A stretch of 32,000 bases of DNA from Pasteurella multocida (GTDB lineage: Bacteria; Pseudomonadota; Gammaproteobacteria; Enterobacterales; Pasteurellaceae): contig NZ_LT906458.1 of the NCBI RefSeq assembly GCF_900187275.1, forward strand, positions 90,001 to 122,000, read 5' to 3'. Shown here in pieces: positions 5,181 to 30,496 of the stretch (positions within the stretch are counted from its first letter, which is position 1; each line of letters starts with the position of its first letter). Under the pieces are notes generated by a model that was not told the DNA's origin, did not search any database, and saw only the letters and a list, made by a program, of their open reading frames with translations. The translations under genes and the position numbers were made by a program.

Positions 5181-6035
<855 letters not shown>

Positions 6036-12897: not shown

Positions 12898-13278
12898 CTA
12901 ATTGCATTTTTTTAGAATATCGGGTTGATCTAACAATAACGAATAATAATTTGCTAGAAAATAAGTTTGTTCGTTATCGGGAATAGGGAAAGGAATCAGA
13001 TCCAAAATATCTTGGTGCATAGCAGAAACAATGGGAAAACAGACCGCACTTTGAATCTTTATCTGAAAATCTTTATGCAAGGGAGAGGCACAGTGTTGTC
13101 GTTTAATCCGACCTAACGCATTGGCTAAGTGAACCAGCAGGGTTTGTACTTGCATCGTGTTGACATCAACATGCCAGTGTTGAGCCAAATGATCTTGCGC
13201 ATTAAATACAATCTCGACAATTTGCTCATCAATTAACTTTCGCACTTGTAACATTTTTAAGTGAGATTGGATATCCAT
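12898..13278 (-). CDS. Hypothetical 126-aa protein, stand-alone PRD-like domain (YhfY-like?)
   Basis: The ORF fills the tRNA-yqaB gap and contains a USS core. LLVHLANALGRIKR and PIPDNEQTYFLANYYSLL resemble the two PRD signatures (L..H...A..R and lPedEagyialH). The second conserved His is absent. The function call is by eye only. Confidence 0.4.
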   Translation of the reverse strand: MDIQSHLKMLQVRKLIDEQIVEIVFNAQDHLAQHWHVDVNTMQVQTLLVHLANALGRIKRQHCASPLHKDFQIKIQSAVCFPIVSAMHQDILDLIPFPIPDNEQTYFLANYYSLLLDQPDILKKCN

Positions 13279-14006: not shown

Positions 14007-14618
14007 ATGTTGACAGACAAAGAAAAACGACATTTAGGTTTAGCGCACCAGCCTTATGATCCGGAATTGGCAGAGATGCGCTTACGTAATAAAGAATTAT
14101 TGCATGAATATAATGTGTTAACTCGCCCTTCAGATAAACAAACAAAAGCCCGTTTGATCTTATCTATTCTTGGTAAAGCTGCGAATACACCTCACATTAA
14201 TGCGCCTTTTTACTGTGATTACGGGCAATTTATTGAAGTCGGAAAAAACTTTTTTGCGAATTATCACTGTACTATCCTAGATACAGGAGGCGTGAAGATT
14301 GGCGATGATGTGTTATTTGCTCCGAATGTGAGTTTATACACCGTAGGGCATCCAATTGATCCTGAATTGCGTAAGGCAGAATGGGAACAAGCACTACCCA
14401 TTGTGATTGGGAATAATGTGTGGATTGGGGGCAATGTGGTGATTTTAGGTGGCGTTACTATCGGTGACAATACTGTAATTGGGGCGGGTTCTGTGGTTAC
14501 AAAAGATATTCCGGCAAATTGTGTAGCCGTGGGCAATCCATGTAAAGTACAACGAATGATTAGCCCGCAGGACCGAGAGGATTATTTACAACGTTTTAAA
14601 CCAGACTGGAATGATTGA
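14007..14618 (+). CDS. maa: Maltose/galactoside O-acetyltransferase family (hexapeptide-repeat) enzyme
   Basis: It has the Maa/LacA N-terminal domain (Y.P.DPEL...R.....L..YN) and left-handed beta-helix hexapeptide repeats (IGNNVWIGGNVVILGGVTIGDNTVIGAGSVVTKDIP). Confidence 0.85.
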   Translation: MLTDKEKRHLGLAHQPYDPELAEMRLRNKELLHEYNVLTRPSDKQTKARLILSILGKAANTPHINAPFYCDYGQFIEVGKNFFANYHCTILDTGGVKIGDDVLFAPNVSLYTVGHPIDPELRKAEWEQALPIVIGNNVWIGGNVVILGGVTIGDNTVIGAGSVVTKDIPANCVAVGNPCKVQRMISPQDREDYLQRFKPDWND

Positions 14619-15090
14619 TTTTTGGACATGGGATTTTTGGCAACAACATAGCTTATGGTTTATGTTTGCTAGTGCCTTTTTGAGTGCCACGCTTTTACCC
14701 GGTAATTCAGAAATCGTGTTTGTTACATTACTCGCCCCTTTGCAACTTAATCAGCAAGGGCTTTTCTCTGATGATGTACTGTGGTTATTCCATATGGCAG
14801 TATTGGGAAACAGTTTAGGTAGCATGACAACTTATTACTTAGGTTACGGTTTACCTCGTTTATCCGAAAAACAGCAACAGCATCCTCGTTTTAAGTGGGT
14901 CATGCAAAAAGTGCAACGCTACGGTGTTTGGAGTCTGCTGTTTAGTTGGCTACCGATAGTTGGTGATTTATTTTGCGCGGTTGCAGGATGGTTAAGATTG
15001 AATATACTCGGGGCATGTGTGCTTATTTTTGTTGGAAAATGGGTACGTTATCTTTTTTTACTGTTGCTGACGATGAAAGTGATGTCCTAG
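14611..15090 (+). CDS. yqaA: YqaA-family (DedA/SNARE-associated type) inner membrane protein
   Basis: FASAFLSATLLPGNSEIVFV, LGNSLG and LLFSWLPIVGDLFCAVAGWLR match E. coli YqaA. The start overlaps the maa stop by 8 nt (ATGATTGA). Confidence 0.8.
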   Translation: MIDFWTWDFWQQHSLWFMFASAFLSATLLPGNSEIVFVTLLAPLQLNQQGLFSDDVLWLFHMAVLGNSLGSMTTYYLGYGLPRLSEKQQQHPRFKWVMQKVQRYGVWSLLFSWLPIVGDLFCAVAGWLRLNILGACVLIFVGKWVRYLFLLLLTMKVMS

Positions 15091-15106
15091 TAATATCTCA
15101 CATGCT

Positions 15107-15182
15107 AAAAAAAACACCACCCAAGATGGGTGGTGAATAACCTAAGGAACCAATTTTATTAAAAACAACTGCAAGTTGCTGT
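15107..15182 (-). ncRNA. Candidate ~76-nt sigma-E-dependent sRNA (positional MicA analogue); 5' end predicted, 3' end at the terminator U-run
   Basis: An orphan minus-strand intrinsic terminator is present (stem 15135-15115 plus U8 at 15114-15107). A sigma-E-like promoter lies upstream. Position and orientation match micA relative to luxS and yqaA in E. coli. There is no experimental support. Confidence 0.45.
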
Positions 15183-15186
15183 ATCC

Positions 15187-15213
15187 TAAGACTGATACGT
15201 TTAAAAAAAGTTC
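15187..15213 (-). promoter_or_regulatory. Sigma-E (RpoE)-type promoter candidate: tGAACTT-N16-TCTTA
   Basis: On the minus strand, GAACTT lies at 15213-15208, followed by a 16-nt spacer TTTTTAAACGTATCAG and TCTTA at 15191-15187. Compare E. coli degP and rpoH P3, GGAACTT-N16-TCTGA. Confidence 0.4.
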
Positions 15214-15263
15214 AAAAAAATTTACCTGCATTTTGCGAAAACTTGAAAATTTAAGGACATATT

Positions 15264-15770
15264 ATGCCATTACTTGATAGCTTTAAAGTTGACCATACCC
15301 GTATGAAAGCGCCAGCAGTACGCATTGCGAAAACCATGACTACCCCAAAGGGCGATAACATTACTGTATTTGATTTACGTTTTTGCATACCAAATAAAGA
15401 GATTCTTTCCCCAAAAGGGATTCATACTTTAGAACATCTTTTTGCGGGTTTTATGCGCGATCATTTAAATGGGACAGAAGTAGAAATTATTGATATTTCC
15501 CCGATGGGCTGTTGTACAGGGTTTTACATGTCATTAATTGGCACACCCAATGAGCAACAGGTGGCAGACGCTTGGTTAGCCTCAATGCGAGATGTGTTAT
15601 TGGTAAAAGATCAAGCGCAGATCCCAGAATTAAATGCTTTCCAGTGCGGGACTTACACCGAGCACTCATTAGCCGAAGCACAACAAATCGCACACAATGT
15701 ACTTGAGCGTGGTGTGAGTGTGAATAAAAATGAAGATTTATTACTCGACGAACAATTATTATCTCTTTAA
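15264..15770 (+). CDS. luxS: S-ribosylhomocysteine lyase (AI-2 synthase)
   Basis: It starts [20 protein letters not shown], has the metal-binding motif HTLEHL and the SPMGCxTGFY motif, and is 168 aa long. Confidence 0.97.
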
Positions 15771-20762: not shown

Positions 20763-23036
20763 ATGAAAATTCAACATATCATTCATGAAAACCAATTAGG
20801 ATTATTGTTTCAACAAGGCTCATTCGGGTTAGAAAAAGAAAGTCAGCGCGTGACTGCCGATGGTGCAATTGTAACGACTCCTCATCCTGCGGTGTTTGGT
20901 AATCGCCGTTATCATCCTTATATTCAAACAGATTTTGCTGAGAGCCAACTTGAGCTGATTACCCCGCCAACTAAAAAGTTAGAAGATACGTTTCGTTGGT
21001 TGTCTGCTATTCATGAAGTGGTACAACGTTCGCTACCCGAAGAAGAATATATTTTCCCATTGAGTATGCCTGCGGGATTGCCAGCAGAAGAGCAAATTCG
21101 TGTGGCACAATTAGATAACCCAGAAGACGTGGCTTATCGTGAATATTTAGTGAAAATATATGGTAAAAATAAGCAGATGGTCAGCGGGATTCACTATAAC
21201 TTTCAGCTTTCCCCCGACTTGATCACACGTTTATTCCGCTTGCAGAATGAGTATCAAAGTGCGGTCGATTTTCAGAATGATTTATATCTGAAAATGGCAA
21301 AAAACTTCTTACGTTATCAATGGATTTTGTTGTATCTATTAGCGGCAACACCAACGGTTGAATCTGCTTATTTTAAAGATGGTTCCCCGTTAGCGAAAGG
21401 GCAATTCGTGCGTAGTTTACGTTCAAGTCAATATGGTTATGTGAATGATCCCGAAATTAACGTTTCTTTTGATAGTGTCGAAAAGTATGTTGAAAGCTTA
21501 GAACATTGGGTATCAACGGGGAAATTGATTGCAGAAAAAGAATTTTATTCTAATGTGCGTTTGCGTGGTGCAAAGAAAGCGCGCGAATTTTTGACAACGG
21601 GTATTCAATATCTGGAGTTCCGTTTATTTGACTTAAATCCGTTTGAAATTTACGGGATTAGCCTAAAAGATGCGAAGTTTATCCACGTGTTCGCCTTATT
21701 CATGATTTGGATGGATCATACTGCTGATCAAGAAGAAGTGGAATTAGGTAAAGCGCGTTTGGCAGAAGTGGCTTTTGAGCATCCATTAGAAAAAACCGCT
21801 TATGCCGTCGAAGGCGAATTGGTGCTCTTAGAATTATTGTCGATGCTAGAGCAAATTGGCGCAGAGCCGGAATTATTTGAGATTGTGAAAGAGAAGTTAA
21901 CTCAATTCACGGATCCAAGCAAAACAGTGGCAGGACGTTTAGTACGCGCGATTGAGCAAGCTGGGAGCGATCAACAATTAGGTGCCCAGCTCGCACAGCA
22001 ATATAAAGCCCAAGCCTTCGAACGTTTTTATGCCTTATCTGCATTCGATAACATGGAGCTTTCTACCCAAGCGTTGTTATTTGATGTGATCCAGAAAGGG
22101 ATTCATACTGAGATTTTGGATGAAAATGATCAATTCTTGTGCTTAAAACATGGTGATCATATTGAGTATGTGAAAAACGGCAATATGACCTCACACGACA
22201 GTTATATTTCACCGCTAATTATGGAAAATAAAGTGGTGACCAAAAAAGTATTGCAAAAAGCGGGCTTTAATGTGCCACAAAGTGTGGAGTTTACTTCTCT
22301 TGAGAAAGCGGTAGCAAGTTATGCACTTTTTGAAAACCGTGCGGTAGTGATTAAACCCAAATCCACGAACTATGGCTTGGGTATCACCATTTTCCAACAA
22401 GGCGTGCAAAACCGTGAGGATTTTGCTAAGGCGCTAGAAATTGCTTTCCGTGAAGATAAAGAAGTAATGGTGGAAGATTATTTAGTCGGAACAGAATACC
22501 GCTTCTTTGTATTAGGTGATGAAACATTGGCCGTATTACTGCGTGTACCAGCCAATGTCGTGGGAGACGGTGTGCATTCTGTGGCAGAACTTGTTGCCAT
22601 GAAAAATGATCATCCGCTACGAGGTGATGGTAGCCGTACGCCATTGAAAAAAATTGCTTTAGGCGAAATTGAGCAGTTACAGCTCAAGGAGCAAGGCTTA
22701 ACCATTGATAGCATTCCCGCTAAAGATCAGCTTGTACAACTACGAGCCAATTCCAATATTAGTACAGGTGGTGATTCCATTGATATGACGGATGAAATGC
22801 ACGAGAGTTATAAACAACTGGCTGTCGGTATCACGAAAGCGATGGGCGCGGCGGTGTGTGGTGTGGATTTAATTATCCCTGACTTGAAGCAACCGGCTAC
22901 GCCAAACTTAAGTTCTTGGGGCGTGATTGAAGCGAATTTTAATCCGATGATGATGATGCATATTTTCCCTTATGCGGGTAAATCTCGTCGTTTAACTCAG
23001 CATGTGATTAAGATGCTCTTTCCTGAACTGGAGTAA
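20763..23036 (+). CDS. gshF: Bifunctional glutamate-cysteine ligase / glutathione synthetase (GshF/GshAB)
   Basis: The 757-aa protein has an N-terminal ~450-aa GshA-like domain (FGLEKESQRV, QLELITPP, SGIHYNF) fused to a C-terminal ATP-grasp domain (VVIKPKSTNYGLGI, EYRFFVLG, NISTGG). This is the fusion characterised in Streptococcus agalactiae, Listeria and Pasteurella multocida. Confidence 0.92.
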   Translation: MKIQHIIHENQLGLLFQQGSFGLEKESQRVTADGAIVTTPHPAVFGNRRYHPYIQTDFAESQLELITPPTKKLEDTFRWLSAIHEVVQRSLPEEEYIFPLSMPAGLPAEEQIRVAQLDNPEDVAYREYLVKIYGKNKQMVSGIHYNFQLSPDLITRLFRLQNEYQSAVDFQNDLYLKMAKNFLRYQWILLYLLAATPTVESAYFKDGSPLAKGQFVRSLRSSQYGYVNDPEINVSFDSVEKYVESLEHWVSTGKLIAEKEFYSNVRLRGAKKAREFLTTGIQYLEFRLFDLNPFEIYGISLKDAKFIHVFALFMIWMDHTADQEEVELGKARLAEVAFEHPLEKTAYAVEGELVLLELLSMLEQIGAEPELFEIVKEKLTQFTDPSKTVAGRLVRAIEQAGSDQQLGAQLAQQYKAQAFERFYALSAFDNMELSTQALLFDVIQKGIHTEILDENDQFLCLKHGDHIEYVKNGNMTSHDSYISPLIMENKVVTKKVLQKAGFNVPQSVEFTSLEKAVASYALFENRAVVIKPKSTNYGLGITIFQQGVQNREDFAKALEIAFREDKEVMVEDYLVGTEYRFFVLGDETLAVLLRVPANVVGDGVHSVAELVAMKNDHPLRGDGSRTPLKKIALGEIEQLQLKEQGLTIDSIPAKDQLVQLRANSNISTGGDSIDMTDEMHESYKQLAVGITKAMGAAVCGVDLIIPDLKQPATPNLSSWGVIEANFNPMMMMHIFPYAGKSRRLTQHVIKMLFPELE

Positions 23037-28553: not shown

Positions 28554-28745
28554 ATGGAGCAGACAAAAAAGAAAGGTTTATTACGTCGCGTGTGGGACGG
28601 TTACAGCAAATTCTGTCAGGACATTGGTGTTGAAAAGGGGGGCGGTCGCGGTTGTTGTTGTGTTCCCGTCGTCAAGTTTGATGAAACATGGAGTGAAGAA
28701 GAAAAAGCCGCAATGAAAAAGGCGCAAGAACAACAAAAATCGTAA
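28554..28745 (+). CDS. Hypothetical 63-aa basic/acidic protein with a GCCCVP cysteine triplet
   Basis: A strong AAGGAG RBS lies 6 nt upstream of the ATG, and an intrinsic terminator follows the stop directly. Coding potential is judged only from these signals. Confidence 0.5.
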   Translation: MEQTKKKGLLRRVWDGYSKFCQDIGVEKGGGRGCCCVPVVKFDETWSEEEKAAMKKAQEQQKS

Positions 28746-28780: not shown

Positions 28781-28864
28781 ATATAAGCAAACAAAATGAA
28801 ACAGCAGAACTTTTTCATTTTTTTTGTTTCTAACAGAAGTCGATTTTTTTAGGAGTTTTGTTGT

Positions 28865-30496
28865 ATGAAAAAATTACGATTTCGTTGGTCCTTATCGTCC
28901 AGCAAATTACTTGCCCTCACCGCTTTCTACTTTAGTGTCATCTTAAATTACCCTTTCTATGCCAAAGTACTGAGTATCCACCCTTTAACCCACACCTCTG
29001 CCGATTATTTTATTTACACCATGCCACTGGTGATTTTCGTGATTCTCAATGCGGCTTTTCAAATCATTGCCATACCTGTCATACATAAGATCATCATGCC
29101 TTGTTTGATCGTAATCAGTGCAGCCATTTCTTATAACACGTTATTTTTTGATATTTATTTTAATCGTGAGATGTTGCAAAACGTAGTGCAAAGTAATCTG
29201 GCAGAAGGTTCACGCTTGATCACATGGACTTATCTAGAATGGCTGTTGGCGTTTGGTTTTGTGCCGGCACTGTTATATTGTCTCACTCGTGTTAACTATC
29301 ATCATGTCGTGAAAGAAGTGCTTGTTCGCTTGAGCATGATCTTACTTTCAGTTTTGTTATTTGTTGGTGTGGCAGCGTTTTTCTACCAAGATTATTCCGC
29401 CTTTTTCCGCAATAACAAAAGCCTGACGCATTTATTAGTACCTTCTAATTTCATTGGCGCGACGATTAATGTGATACAGGATTTACGAGCAGCGAATTTA
29501 CCTTATGTGCAACTTGATTTGAAAGCAAGCCAAGCGAAAACGGATCAAGATCGTCATGTCACAGTTTTAATCATTGGCGAAACGACACGTGCGAAAAATT
29601 GGGGGCTTAACCATTATGAGCGACAAACCACCCCGTTATTAGCAAAGCGGGGTGAGGACGTGATTAACTTTCAGCATATGACGAGCTGTGGAACTTCAAC
29701 TGCAGTTTCTGTCCCCTGTATGTTTTCTAGCTTAGATCGTAAACACTTCAGCAATGTACAGGCGGATCACCAAGATAATTTACTGGATATTTTGCAACGA
29801 GCGGGGATTGCTATTAAATGGTTGAATAATAATTCCGATTGTAAAGGCGTCTGTAAACACATTCCTTATCAGAATGTGACAACATTGAATTTAGCGGAAT
29901 ACTGTCGAAATGGAGAATGTTTAGATAATATTTTACTGACGCAAGTGGATCAGCTCCTTGACAGTACAGACAAGGATACAGTGCTTGTTTTGCATACTAT
30001 TGGTAATCATGGACCTACCTATTATGAACGTTATACGCCCGAATATCGCCAATTTGTGCCAACCTGTGATACTAACCAAATCAATCGCTGTTCAAAACAA
30101 CAACTGGTGAATACTTATGACAATGGGATTTTGTATGTAGACCAATTTATTGATCAAGTGATCAGCAAGCTAGAGCAGCGCCAACACTTACAGAGTGCTG
30201 TGATTTACGTGTCTGATCATGGCGAATCCTTAGGGGAAAAAGGTGTTTATTTACATGCCGCGCCCTATGTGATTGCCCCAACAGAGCAGACACATATTCC
30301 GATGATCATGTGGTTTTCACCACGTTGGAAAGCCTCACAACAAGTGGATTTAACTTGTTTACGCCAAAAAGCGAAAGAAGAAGCCTATTCGCATGATCAC
30401 TTTTTTAGTACCGTGTTTGGTTTGATGCAGATGTCGGAGGAGAGTGAAACTTACCAACAAGACATGGATATTTTACGTCGTTGTCGCACACGCTAG
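28865..30496 (+). CDS. eptA: Phosphoethanolamine transferase, EptA/MCR family (probable lipid A or LPS-core PEtn transferase)
   Basis: Five N-terminal transmembrane helices are followed by a periplasmic sulfatase-fold domain. IIGETTRAKNW carries the Thr nucleophile equivalent to GETAR of MCR-1. HTIGNHGPTYYERY and VSDHGESLGEKGVYLH are also present. Confidence 0.85.
   Translation: MKKLRFRWSLSSSKLLALTAFYFSVILNYPFYAKVLSIHPLTHTSADYFIYTMPLVIFVILNAAFQIIAIPVIHKIIMPCLIVISAAISYNTLFFDIYFNREMLQNVVQSNLAEGSRLITWTYLEWLLAFGFVPALLYCLTRVNYHHVVKEVLVRLSMILLSVLLFVGVAAFFYQDYSAFFRNNKSLTHLLVPSNFIGATINVIQDLRAANLPYVQLDLKASQAKTDQDRHVTVLIIGETTRAKNWGLNHYERQTTPLLAKRGEDVINFQHMTSCGTSTAVSVPCMFSSLDRKHFSNVQADHQDNLLDILQRAGIAIKWLNNNSDCKGVCKHIPYQNVTTLNLAEYCRNGECLDNILLTQVDQLLDSTDKDTVLVLHTIGNHGPTYYERYTPEYRQFVPTCDTNQINRCSKQQLVNTYDNGILYVDQFIDQVISKLEQRQHLQSAVIYVSDHGESLGEKGVYLHAAPYVIAPTEQTHIPMIMWFSPRWKASQQVDLTCLRQKAKEEAYSHDHFFSTVFGLMQMSEESETYQQDMDILRRCRTR

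Follow-up and report, generated by a model that had tools for sequence, protein, structure and literature searches.

The minus strand of a 32,000-nucleotide stretch of the Pasteurella multocida genome (contig NZ_LT906458.1, positions 90,001 to 122,000; hereafter the window, with positions counted from its first letter) carries between yqaA and luxS, at 15180-15107, what its Rfam match identifies as the gene for JA04. This RNA of about 70 nt is conserved in Pasteurellaceae and already catalogued, and the object itself is not novel. Its position and its promoter suggest a different reading of its regulation. JA04 is the positional counterpart of MicA, the small RNA (sRNA) encoded beside luxS in Escherichia coli, and is probably driven by sigma-E. 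The best explanation overall, which we regard as likely, is an sRNA whose promoter would be read by sigma-E, which would be bound by Hfq, and which would pair with the mRNAs of envelope proteins as a functional as well as positional counterpart of MicA.

Identity and promoter of JA04

Covariance models are used to assign RNAs to families. Searching the window with cmscan gave a full-length match (model positions 1-81) to RF02732 ("Aggregatibacter sRNA JA04") at 15179-15100 on the minus strand, with 93.1 bits (gathering score 81; E 9e-16). R1, a covariance model of our own that was built from nine sequences and run on fetched luxS loci, placed the same RNA at 15180-15108 on the minus strand with 99.3 bits. 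A preliminary description of this DNA had presented the RNA as unannotated and as one that homology-based annotation would miss. Neither statement survives, as the RF02732 model finds the RNA above its gathering score and the RNA was published in 2012. The same description proposed a discrete non-coding transcription unit on the minus strand between yqaA and luxS, and this is borne out; no minus-strand open reading frame (ORF) of at least 30 amino acids lies within 15091-15250, in agreement with its statement that no credible coding sequence exists there. The features of the locus are as follows.

15107-15180, minus strand: JA04 small RNA gene (RF02732), with predicted +1 at A15180 and 3' end within the U-run 15114-15107
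15208-15213, minus strand: -35 box GAACTT, unchanged in 24/25 JA04 copies (19 Pasteurellaceae loci)
15187-15192, minus strand: -10 box (G)TCTTA, with TCTTA at 15191-15187, separated from the -35 box by 16 nt and from +1 by 6 nt
15214-15227, minus strand: A/T-rich stretch resembling an UP element, with a mean A+T of 83% over 23 distinct promoters; UP function putative
15178-15166, minus strand: 5' hairpin CAACU-UGC-AGUUG, from folding and present in the Rfam consensus structure
15139-15157, minus strand: invariant single-stranded core AAAAUUGGUUCCUUAGGUU, its columns invariant or nearly so in 19 aligned sequences and unpaired in minimum free energy and centroid folds
15135-15107, minus strand: intrinsic terminator from a terminator scan, with stem-loop 15135-15115 (9-bp stem, 6 G-C, CACCACCCA/UGGGUGGUG) and U8 at 15114-15107
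15264-15770, plus strand: luxS (NCBIfam S-ribosylhomocysteine lyase, 319 bits), divergent from JA04, its ATG 84 nt from the predicted JA04 +1
14611-15090, plus strand: yqaA-family gene (Pfam VTT domain), converging on the JA04 terminator

For comparison, 80 luxS loci were taken from one-genome-per-species collections. R1 identified 25 JA04 copies, with JA04 at 19/19 Pasteurellaceae luxS loci, and no copy at the luxS loci of Neisseria, Vibrio, Shewanella, Rheinheimera or Enterobacterales. The genera that carry JA04 are Haemophilus, Aggregatibacter, Pasteurella, Rodentibacter, Necropsobacter and Lonepinella, together with an Actinobacillus metagenome-assembled genome and unnamed Pasteurellaceae; the copies nearest to that of the window are from Pasteurella oralis (96%), P. 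canis and Pasteurella sp., and these, with the nearest relatives of its LuxS, would by themselves point to Pasteurella as the probable host. JA04 orthologues in many Pasteurellaceae had been noted before (Santana et al., 2014; PMC4144887). The JA04 of Aggregatibacter actinomycetemcomitans shares with the present one the 5' hairpin, the core AAAAUUGGUUCCUUAGGUUAU, the terminator architecture and the position upstream of luxS. It differs in having another terminator stem sequence with compensatory changes, a -10 box of TCATA (TCTTA here) and a spacer of 17 nt (16 nt here). RNA-seq of A. actinomycetemcomitans under standard, non-chelated conditions in 2017 detected JA04 alone of the four JA RNAs (PMC5909427).

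The preliminary description had also pointed to promoter boxes of the sigma-E type, tGAACTT-N16-TCTTA, at 15213-15187, and the comparative data strongly reinforce this observation. The layout is that of the sigma-E promoter class (GAACTT at 15213-15208, N16, TCTTA at 15191-15187, N6, A15180). The boxes are identical to the RpoE consensus of Actinobacillus pleuropneumoniae, which like the promoter of the A. pleuropneumoniae sRNA Rna01 is GAACTT, 16 bp, TCTTA and 6 bp to the start (PMC9577009), and the JA04 promoter is therefore read as being of the sigma-E type. An A/T-rich run, GAACTT, 16-17 nt, (G)TCnnA, 6-8 nt and A(A)GCAAC follow one another in 24/25 copies. Over 23 distinct promoters, the T, C and final A of the -10 box are 100% identical and the leading G 83%, and the 15-16 spacer positions average 56% identity. 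Conserved boxes on either side of a drifting spacer are what a phylogenetic footprint of a promoter classically looks like. In the window, the strict motif GAACTT-N16-TCTNA occurs twice (0.095 expected); in 183 kb of Pasteurellaceae DNA it has 19 occurrences (0.77 expected), every one of them intergenic. No sigma-70-like promoter for JA04 was found on the minus strand; the hexamer at the -10 position, GTCTTA, was rejected as a sigma-70 element because it matches TATAAT at 0/6 positions. A literature search, with subscription journals outside its reach, found nothing that links JA04 to sigma-E, MicA or luxS synteny.

Additional copies of JA04 were seen in two groups. In the Haemophilus haemolyticus group (loci L015, L020, L021 and L022), the gene is tandemly duplicated upstream of luxS, and each copy has its own GAACTT-N16-TCTCA or TCTTA promoter and its own terminator. 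The two copies of L015 lie at 2667-2748 and 2811-2893; the tandem copies score 94.3 and 90.8 bits, both above the Rfam gathering score, and one L015 copy has CCUUGGG in its core instead of CCUUAGG. Necropsobacter rosorum has a second, more distant copy (L029, 2579-2651; 72.5 bits with R1, below the Rfam gathering score) that lacks the sigma-E boxes and has a TACAAT-like hexamer upstream. This duplicate may have been rewired to another promoter.

The second strict motif in the window, GAACTT-N16-TCTAA at 28807-28833 on the plus strand, is about 30 nt upstream of the ORF 28865-30496. This ORF encodes an EptA-type phosphoethanolamine--lipid A transferase (NCBIfam NF028537, 629 bits); as an envelope gene it serves as an internal control for the motif, and the arrangement suggests that this organism places lipid A modification under envelope-stress control.

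RNA architecture and predicted target

Intrinsic terminators consist of a G+C-rich hairpin and a U-run, and the preliminary description placed one on the minus strand at 15135-15107. The stem-loop and T8 are present there, and the hairpin terminates in one direction only, because AATAACC, without a T-run, comes after it on the plus strand. A single site of this kind is unremarkable (two terminator-like sites in 1.4 kb, 1.2 expected by chance), and the comparative evidence carries more weight. A G+C-rich stem of 6-9 bp followed by a T-run is present in 19/19 orthologues with at least nine different stem sequences. Compensatory changes occur in 7/8 pairs of the terminator helix, with a covariation score of 0.34 (0.117 for shuffled alignments, 0/500 of which were as high). 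The alignment was guided by a covariance model and is biased towards the modelled structure, but the slid-partner control still favours structure, with 88% of cells paired as opposed to 35-49%. A MAFFT alignment was dropped for covariation analysis because it misaligned the terminator arms. The conservation among Pasteurellaceae spacers to which the preliminary description had looked is thus present, with promoter boxes conserved, the core invariant and the terminator stem covarying.

The 5' part of the RNA is conserved in another way. Its hairpin is paired in 98% of cells without covariation, and three of its five pairs never vary; this therefore reflects a constraint on sequence and not only on structure. 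Downstream, the invariant core at 15157-15139 contains the UCCUUAGG element and carries the anti-Shine-Dalgarno motif UCCUU. The 5' hairpin, the A/U-rich tract and the UCCUUAGG element are all where the preliminary description had placed them. Together, the sequence-invariant hairpin and core argue for base-specific contacts rather than structure alone, and the core AAAAUUGGUUCCUUAGGUU is a candidate seed or Hfq-contact region. The fold and the structure line of Rfam agree on a 6-bp 5' hairpin, a core that is A/U-rich and single-stranded, and a terminator hairpin followed by a U-run. The U8 tail and the A/U-rich UUUUUAAUAAAAUU form a module typical of Hfq-dependent sRNAs, making JA04 a putative Hfq ligand. 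Although a minus-strand RNA was correctly foreseen by the preliminary description, its start near 15182 and its length of about 76 nt are revised to A15180 and about 67-74 nt, with the end in the U-run. A15180 is preferred because of the 6 nt between -10 box and +1 in micA and Rna01 and because of where the Rfam and R1 matches start.

According to the proposed mechanism, RpoE (sigma-E, the extracytoplasmic-stress sigma factor) would read the JA04 promoter, and the RNA would accumulate during envelope stress or in stationary phase. JA04 would bind Hfq through its U-tail and A/U-rich stretch and pair with the translation-initiation regions (TIRs) of envelope-protein mRNAs, resulting in less outer-membrane protein (OMP) synthesis. 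The best candidate target is ompA/P5, at its Shine-Dalgarno sequence, AUG and codons 3-5. The iron/Fur responsiveness published for A. actinomycetemcomitans would be secondary or species-specific.

Target prediction used 60 ompA/P5 loci retrieved from metagenomes, for which a P5 sequence served only as the probe. Pasteurellaceae ompA/P5 leaders share GAUGACUAAAUAGAGGA(C/UC)AUCAAA-AUG-AAAAAAACUGCAAUCGC and are visibly related to the E. coli ompA region bound by MicA. RNAduplex predicted six short helices between JA04 nt 1-46 and P5 -23 to +31, at -22 to -28 kcal/mol, among them UCCUU:GAGGA over the Shine-Dalgarno sequence, UUUU(U)A:UGAAAA over the AUG and UGCAGUU:AACUGCA over codons 3-5. Against shuffled JA04, this pairing gave z values of -4.5 (p 0.001) and -2.8 (p 0.013); by the same crude method, the proven pair of MicA and E. 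coli ompA gave z -2.0 (p 0.035), and the cross-control of MicA with P5 gave nothing. The H. influenzae-type P5 scored above all of 76 other TIRs, by a margin of only about 2 kcal/mol, and was top among 91 TIRs. When accessibility was included, the cofold gain for JA04 and P5 was -10.6 versus -5.1 +/- 2.5 (p 0.03). A scan of the window's own 26 TIRs was uninformative, with a best match no better than that of shuffled seeds (p 0.43). Targeting of ompA/P5 by JA04 is plausible on these models, and we put it forward tentatively, at clearly less than even odds.

Two further observations concern the ompA/P5 region. The leader GAUGACUAAAUAGAGGACAUCAAAAUGAAAAAAACUGCAAUCGC (L083-L135, about 1175-1215) resembles the MicA-binding E. 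coli ompA leader GGAUGAUAACGAGGCGCAAAAAAUGAAAAAGACAGCUAUCGC (L142, about 5975-6005), and the regulatory region of the target may be conserved across both orders. About 58 nt upstream of ompA/P5, and pointing away from it, is another sigma-E-type promoter, a conserved GAACTT-N16-TCTAA with variable spacer (L083, minus strand 1143-1117; also L084, L086, L106, L111 and L133; the -10 box of L095 is TCAAA). The roughly 300 nt between this promoter and a FAD-oxidase-like gene contain neither an ORF nor an Rfam match; they could represent a long leader, or else a sigma-E-dependent RNA, so far undescribed, beside the major OMP gene.

Relation to MicA and alternative explanations

MicA (SraD; RF00078) of Enterobacterales is one of the known RNAs with which JA04 can be compared. 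The gene order in the window is tRNA-Ser(GCU), tRNA-Arg(ACG) x2, yqaB, an acetyltransferase gene, yqaA, JA04 on the opposite strand, and luxS; in the annotated E. coli record it is csrA, tRNA-Ser, tRNA-Arg x4, yqaB, yqaA, gshA, micA on the opposite strand, and luxS. The statement of the preliminary description that the RNA is at the micA position of a colinear block is consistent with this order. JA04 is immediately upstream of luxS and divergent from it at 19/19 Pasteurellaceae loci. The distance from 5' end to luxS ATG is 69 nt for micA in E. coli-type loci and 62-116 nt for JA04. At nine Enterobacterales loci, the micA promoter consists of an A/T-rich run and GAACTC-N16-TCTGA-N6-G(+1), and the architecture common to both RNAs is an A/T-rich run, GAACTY, N16, TCTNA, N6 and a purine at +1. 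Both are RNAs of about 70 nt with an intrinsic terminator, and JA04, like MicA, is predicted to pair across the ompA Shine-Dalgarno and start region. They differ in that the 5' seed of MicA is single-stranded whereas the 5' end of JA04 forms a hairpin, in that gshA separates yqaA from micA in E. coli but does not separate yqaA from JA04, and in that the sigma-E dependence and targets of MicA are experimentally proven whereas those of JA04 are predicted.

Rna01 of A. pleuropneumoniae is similar to JA04 in having the same putative RpoE promoter; according to da Silva et al. (2022; PMC9577009), it associates with Hfq, influences vesicles and the OMP profile, and has a fold resembling that of MicA. 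Rna01 forms a family of its own, located between sbcB and eriC in the Actinobacillus/Mannheimia/Glaesserella clade, with another sequence and with no Rfam match reported in PMC9577009. The possibility that Rna01 is JA04 was considered and ruled out by the different locus, the different sequence (from its primers) and the missing Rfam match.

Several results weigh against the explanation proposed here. In the accounts given by the citing papers, the sole experimental regulatory data reported for JA04 concern iron and Fur in A. actinomycetemcomitans, and the regulation of JA04 at the present locus is read entirely from sequence. The -10 box of A. actinomycetemcomitans and A. segnis, TCATA, is a slightly weaker match. 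The MicA covariance model has no match in 14900-15400 even at E <= 10, and the JA04 model has none at 10 micA loci. Alignment of the JA04 and MicA bodies is marginal (z 1.0-2.5, p 0.18 and 0.024), and common descent of the two bodies is not demonstrable by such comparison. For the predicted target, two unrelated TIRs score near P5 (-25.6 and -25.2), the ompA/P5 pairing signal requires an opened 5' hairpin, the invariant single-stranded core gives no significant result by itself (p 0.18-0.32), and pairing is not robust for divergent ompA-family genes (p 0.08-0.15).

Resemblance between the two RNAs was searched for in other ways as well. The Rfam models for RybB, MicL and VrrA did not match the RNA, and the best non-JA04 matches at E <= 10 were noise. 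Whole-RNA similarity of JA04 and MicA (z 3.3-4.5) was discounted, since it is inflated by the common terminator architecture. The preliminary description was right that there is no primary-sequence resemblance to MicA, there being no covariance-model match in either direction. Its phrase "positional orthologue or analogue of MicA" holds for the positional counterpart; orthology is not established by the covariance models and the body alignment. By eye, a patch of 12/16 identities (GCAUUUGUUAUCAUCA with GCAGUUGUUUUAAUAA, or GCAGUUGUUUUUAAUA with GCAUUUGUUAUCAUCA) joins window positions 15180-15156 to nt 10-25 of E. coli MicA, the MicA ompA-binding seed, at near-equal offset from +1. This patch could be a relic of common ancestry, and with marginal statistics (body alignment p 0.02-0.18) it is a hint only. 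A further possibility is that JA04 is a true MicA orthologue, whose promoter, luxS-adjacent position and job (switching off OmpA/P5 along with other envelope proteins under sigma-E control) would go back to the common ancestor of Enterobacterales and Pasteurellales, with the body remodelled beyond recognition and the iron/Fur label a misassignment. We rate this somewhat short of an even chance.

In the literature, JA04 is usually placed with iron-responsive sRNAs. If it were a Fur-repressed RNA of the class of RyhB, PrrF, NrrF and HrrF, its expression would come with iron limitation and serve to adjust genes related to iron or to biofilm, and the likeness of its boxes to sigma-E sites would be incidental. 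In favor of this, Rfam 13 groups JA04 with iron-related sRNAs, and the citing papers, as far as their accounts go, describe JA01-JA04 of strain HK1651 as Fur-regulated and expressed under iron limitation (PMC4144887; PMC5909427; PMC8551640). The promoter DNA gives a different picture. With a 19-mer consensus, the best Fur-box matches in 10 promoter regions were 9-11/19, at or below the shuffle mean of about 11; the window gave 9/19 and A. actinomycetemcomitans 10/19, no better than shuffles, and at this level no Fur operator is apparent at JA04. In the 2012 work of Amarasinghe et al., JA04 of A. actinomycetemcomitans was reportedly induced by iron chelation, and Fur binding or titration is said to have been seen. 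Fur titration and gel shifts with lysates can give a signal on AT-rich DNA that lacks a specific site, and the chelator induction could be indirect, through growth arrest or envelope stress. Conservation across genera falls on the sigma-E-type boxes and not on any operator-like palindrome, and no conserved sequence element reflects the published label. HrrF (RF02728) is, like JA04, a small family-restricted Pasteurellaceae sRNA, but it has three predicted Fur boxes, demonstrated Fur binding and a locus between pmbA and hpt (PMC4144887), whereas JA04 has no Fur box and a sigma-E-type promoter. The orthologue of nontypeable Haemophilus influenzae lacks a Fur box in its vicinity, is not under Fur control and shows no expression at mid-log (PMC4144887). 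A sigma-E promoter would explain why that orthologue is silent at mid-log and indifferent to Fur, and why JA04, alone of its group, was seen without chelation. An iron-responsive, Fur-repressed JA04 is, in our judgment, unlikely.

Two other explanations concern the locus itself. JA04 could act mainly in cis, as antisense to luxS-bound transcripts (yqaA read-through or long luxS leaders), leading to RNase III processing and coupling luxS to stress, with trans targets secondary. The spacer between yqaA and luxS has no plus-strand terminator, all of its terminator-like sites being on the minus strand, so that JA04 would be complementary to read-through transcripts along its whole length. All 19 Pasteurellaceae loci keep the sRNA-luxS arrangement, as do Enterobacterales, and the -35 box is 29-34 nt from the luxS ATG in some species, leaving little space for a separate luxS promoter. 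MicA and luxS are reportedly entangled functionally (work of Udekwu, 2010), and such entanglement has been described for E. coli and Salmonella (PMC2987988). However, a purely cis role leaves unexplained the invariant 19-nt core and 5' hairpin, where the complementary DNA is without coding constraint, and the tandem second copies further from luxS in H. haemolyticus, and no plus-strand sigma-70 promoter was detected upstream of the sRNA; a mainly cis-acting RNA is thus quite unlikely. It could also be supposed that there is no functional sRNA, the hairpin being a terminator or insulator between convergent or divergent genes and the boxes having arisen by chance, since one terminator-like site in 1.4 kb is within chance expectation. 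This is effectively refuted, and we give it hardly any probability: a curated Rfam family is matched at E 9e-16, the RNA body is invariant across at least eight genera, boxes are kept as spacers vary, the terminator covaries, the hairpin lacks a T-run on the plus strand, and the transcript has been seen by RNA-seq in A. actinomycetemcomitans (PMC5909427).

Implications and the surrounding neighbourhood

Finding the RNA itself changes nothing, as it is catalogued; the value of the locus is in a re-reading, testable and well supported, of its regulation and evolutionary position. JA04 is filed as an iron/Fur sRNA, yet the only elements conserved over at least eight genera are the sigma-E-type promoter and the anti-Shine-Dalgarno core. 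Pasteurellaceae have been considered to lack MicA, RybB and MicL. If sigma-E control is true, this family gains a missing piece of its envelope-stress response, and if JA04 is a MicA orthologue, JA04 and Rna01 would form a sigma-E sRNA arm equivalent to MicA plus RybB. The locus would be a clean example of an sRNA "slot" (promoter and position) that outlasts recognisable RNA sequence, which bears on how sRNA orthologues are searched for. OmpA/P5 is a Haemophilus adhesin and vaccine antigen, and for that reason an RNA that represses it under stress would also matter for applied work.

The position beside luxS also has consequences for the study of luxS mutants. Biofilm phenotypes of Salmonella luxS deletions are MicA effects (PMC2987988). 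The JA04 promoter is 29-84 nt from the luxS ATG in Pasteurellaceae, and luxS mutants of these pathogens therefore deserve the same scrutiny. Should the orthology with MicA hold, JA04 could account for part of the luxS-mutant phenotypes reported in Aggregatibacter, Haemophilus and Pasteurella.

Some features of the neighbourhood differ from E. coli or among related loci. A bifunctional glutamate-cysteine ligase/glutathione synthetase gene (GshAB/GshF; TIGR01435, 1193 bits) is at 20763-23036 on the plus strand, 5 kb beyond luxS; in E. coli, the monofunctional gshA is directly between yqaA and micA, and the glutathione gene of the neighbourhood seems to have been replaced and displaced. LuxS of Neisseria spp. 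(L002-L005, L010, L016, L019 and L025) is 83-84% identical to that of the window, a similarity that equals that of Haemophilus LuxS and exceeds that of several Pasteurellaceae. Upstream of luxS, the Neisseria DNA is unrelated and lacks JA04. Together these observations suggest that luxS alone was transferred horizontally between Neisseria and Pasteurellaceae.

Other ORFs were noted in passing. An isolated PRD-domain ORF of 126 amino acids at 12898-13278 (minus strand), between the tRNA cluster and yqaB, looks like the remnant of a phosphotransferase system regulator. In a public assembly with identical LuxS (L144, 248-855), the acetyltransferase gene that lies between yqaB and yqaA is broken up into ORFs of 89 and 108 amino acids and is probably a pseudogene. 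At 28555-28745 on the plus strand, between a TmcA-like acetyltransferase gene and eptA, an ORF of 63 amino acids with its own Shine-Dalgarno sequence (MEQTKKKGLL...GGGRGCCCVPVVKFDE...) contains a Cys-rich CCCVP motif.

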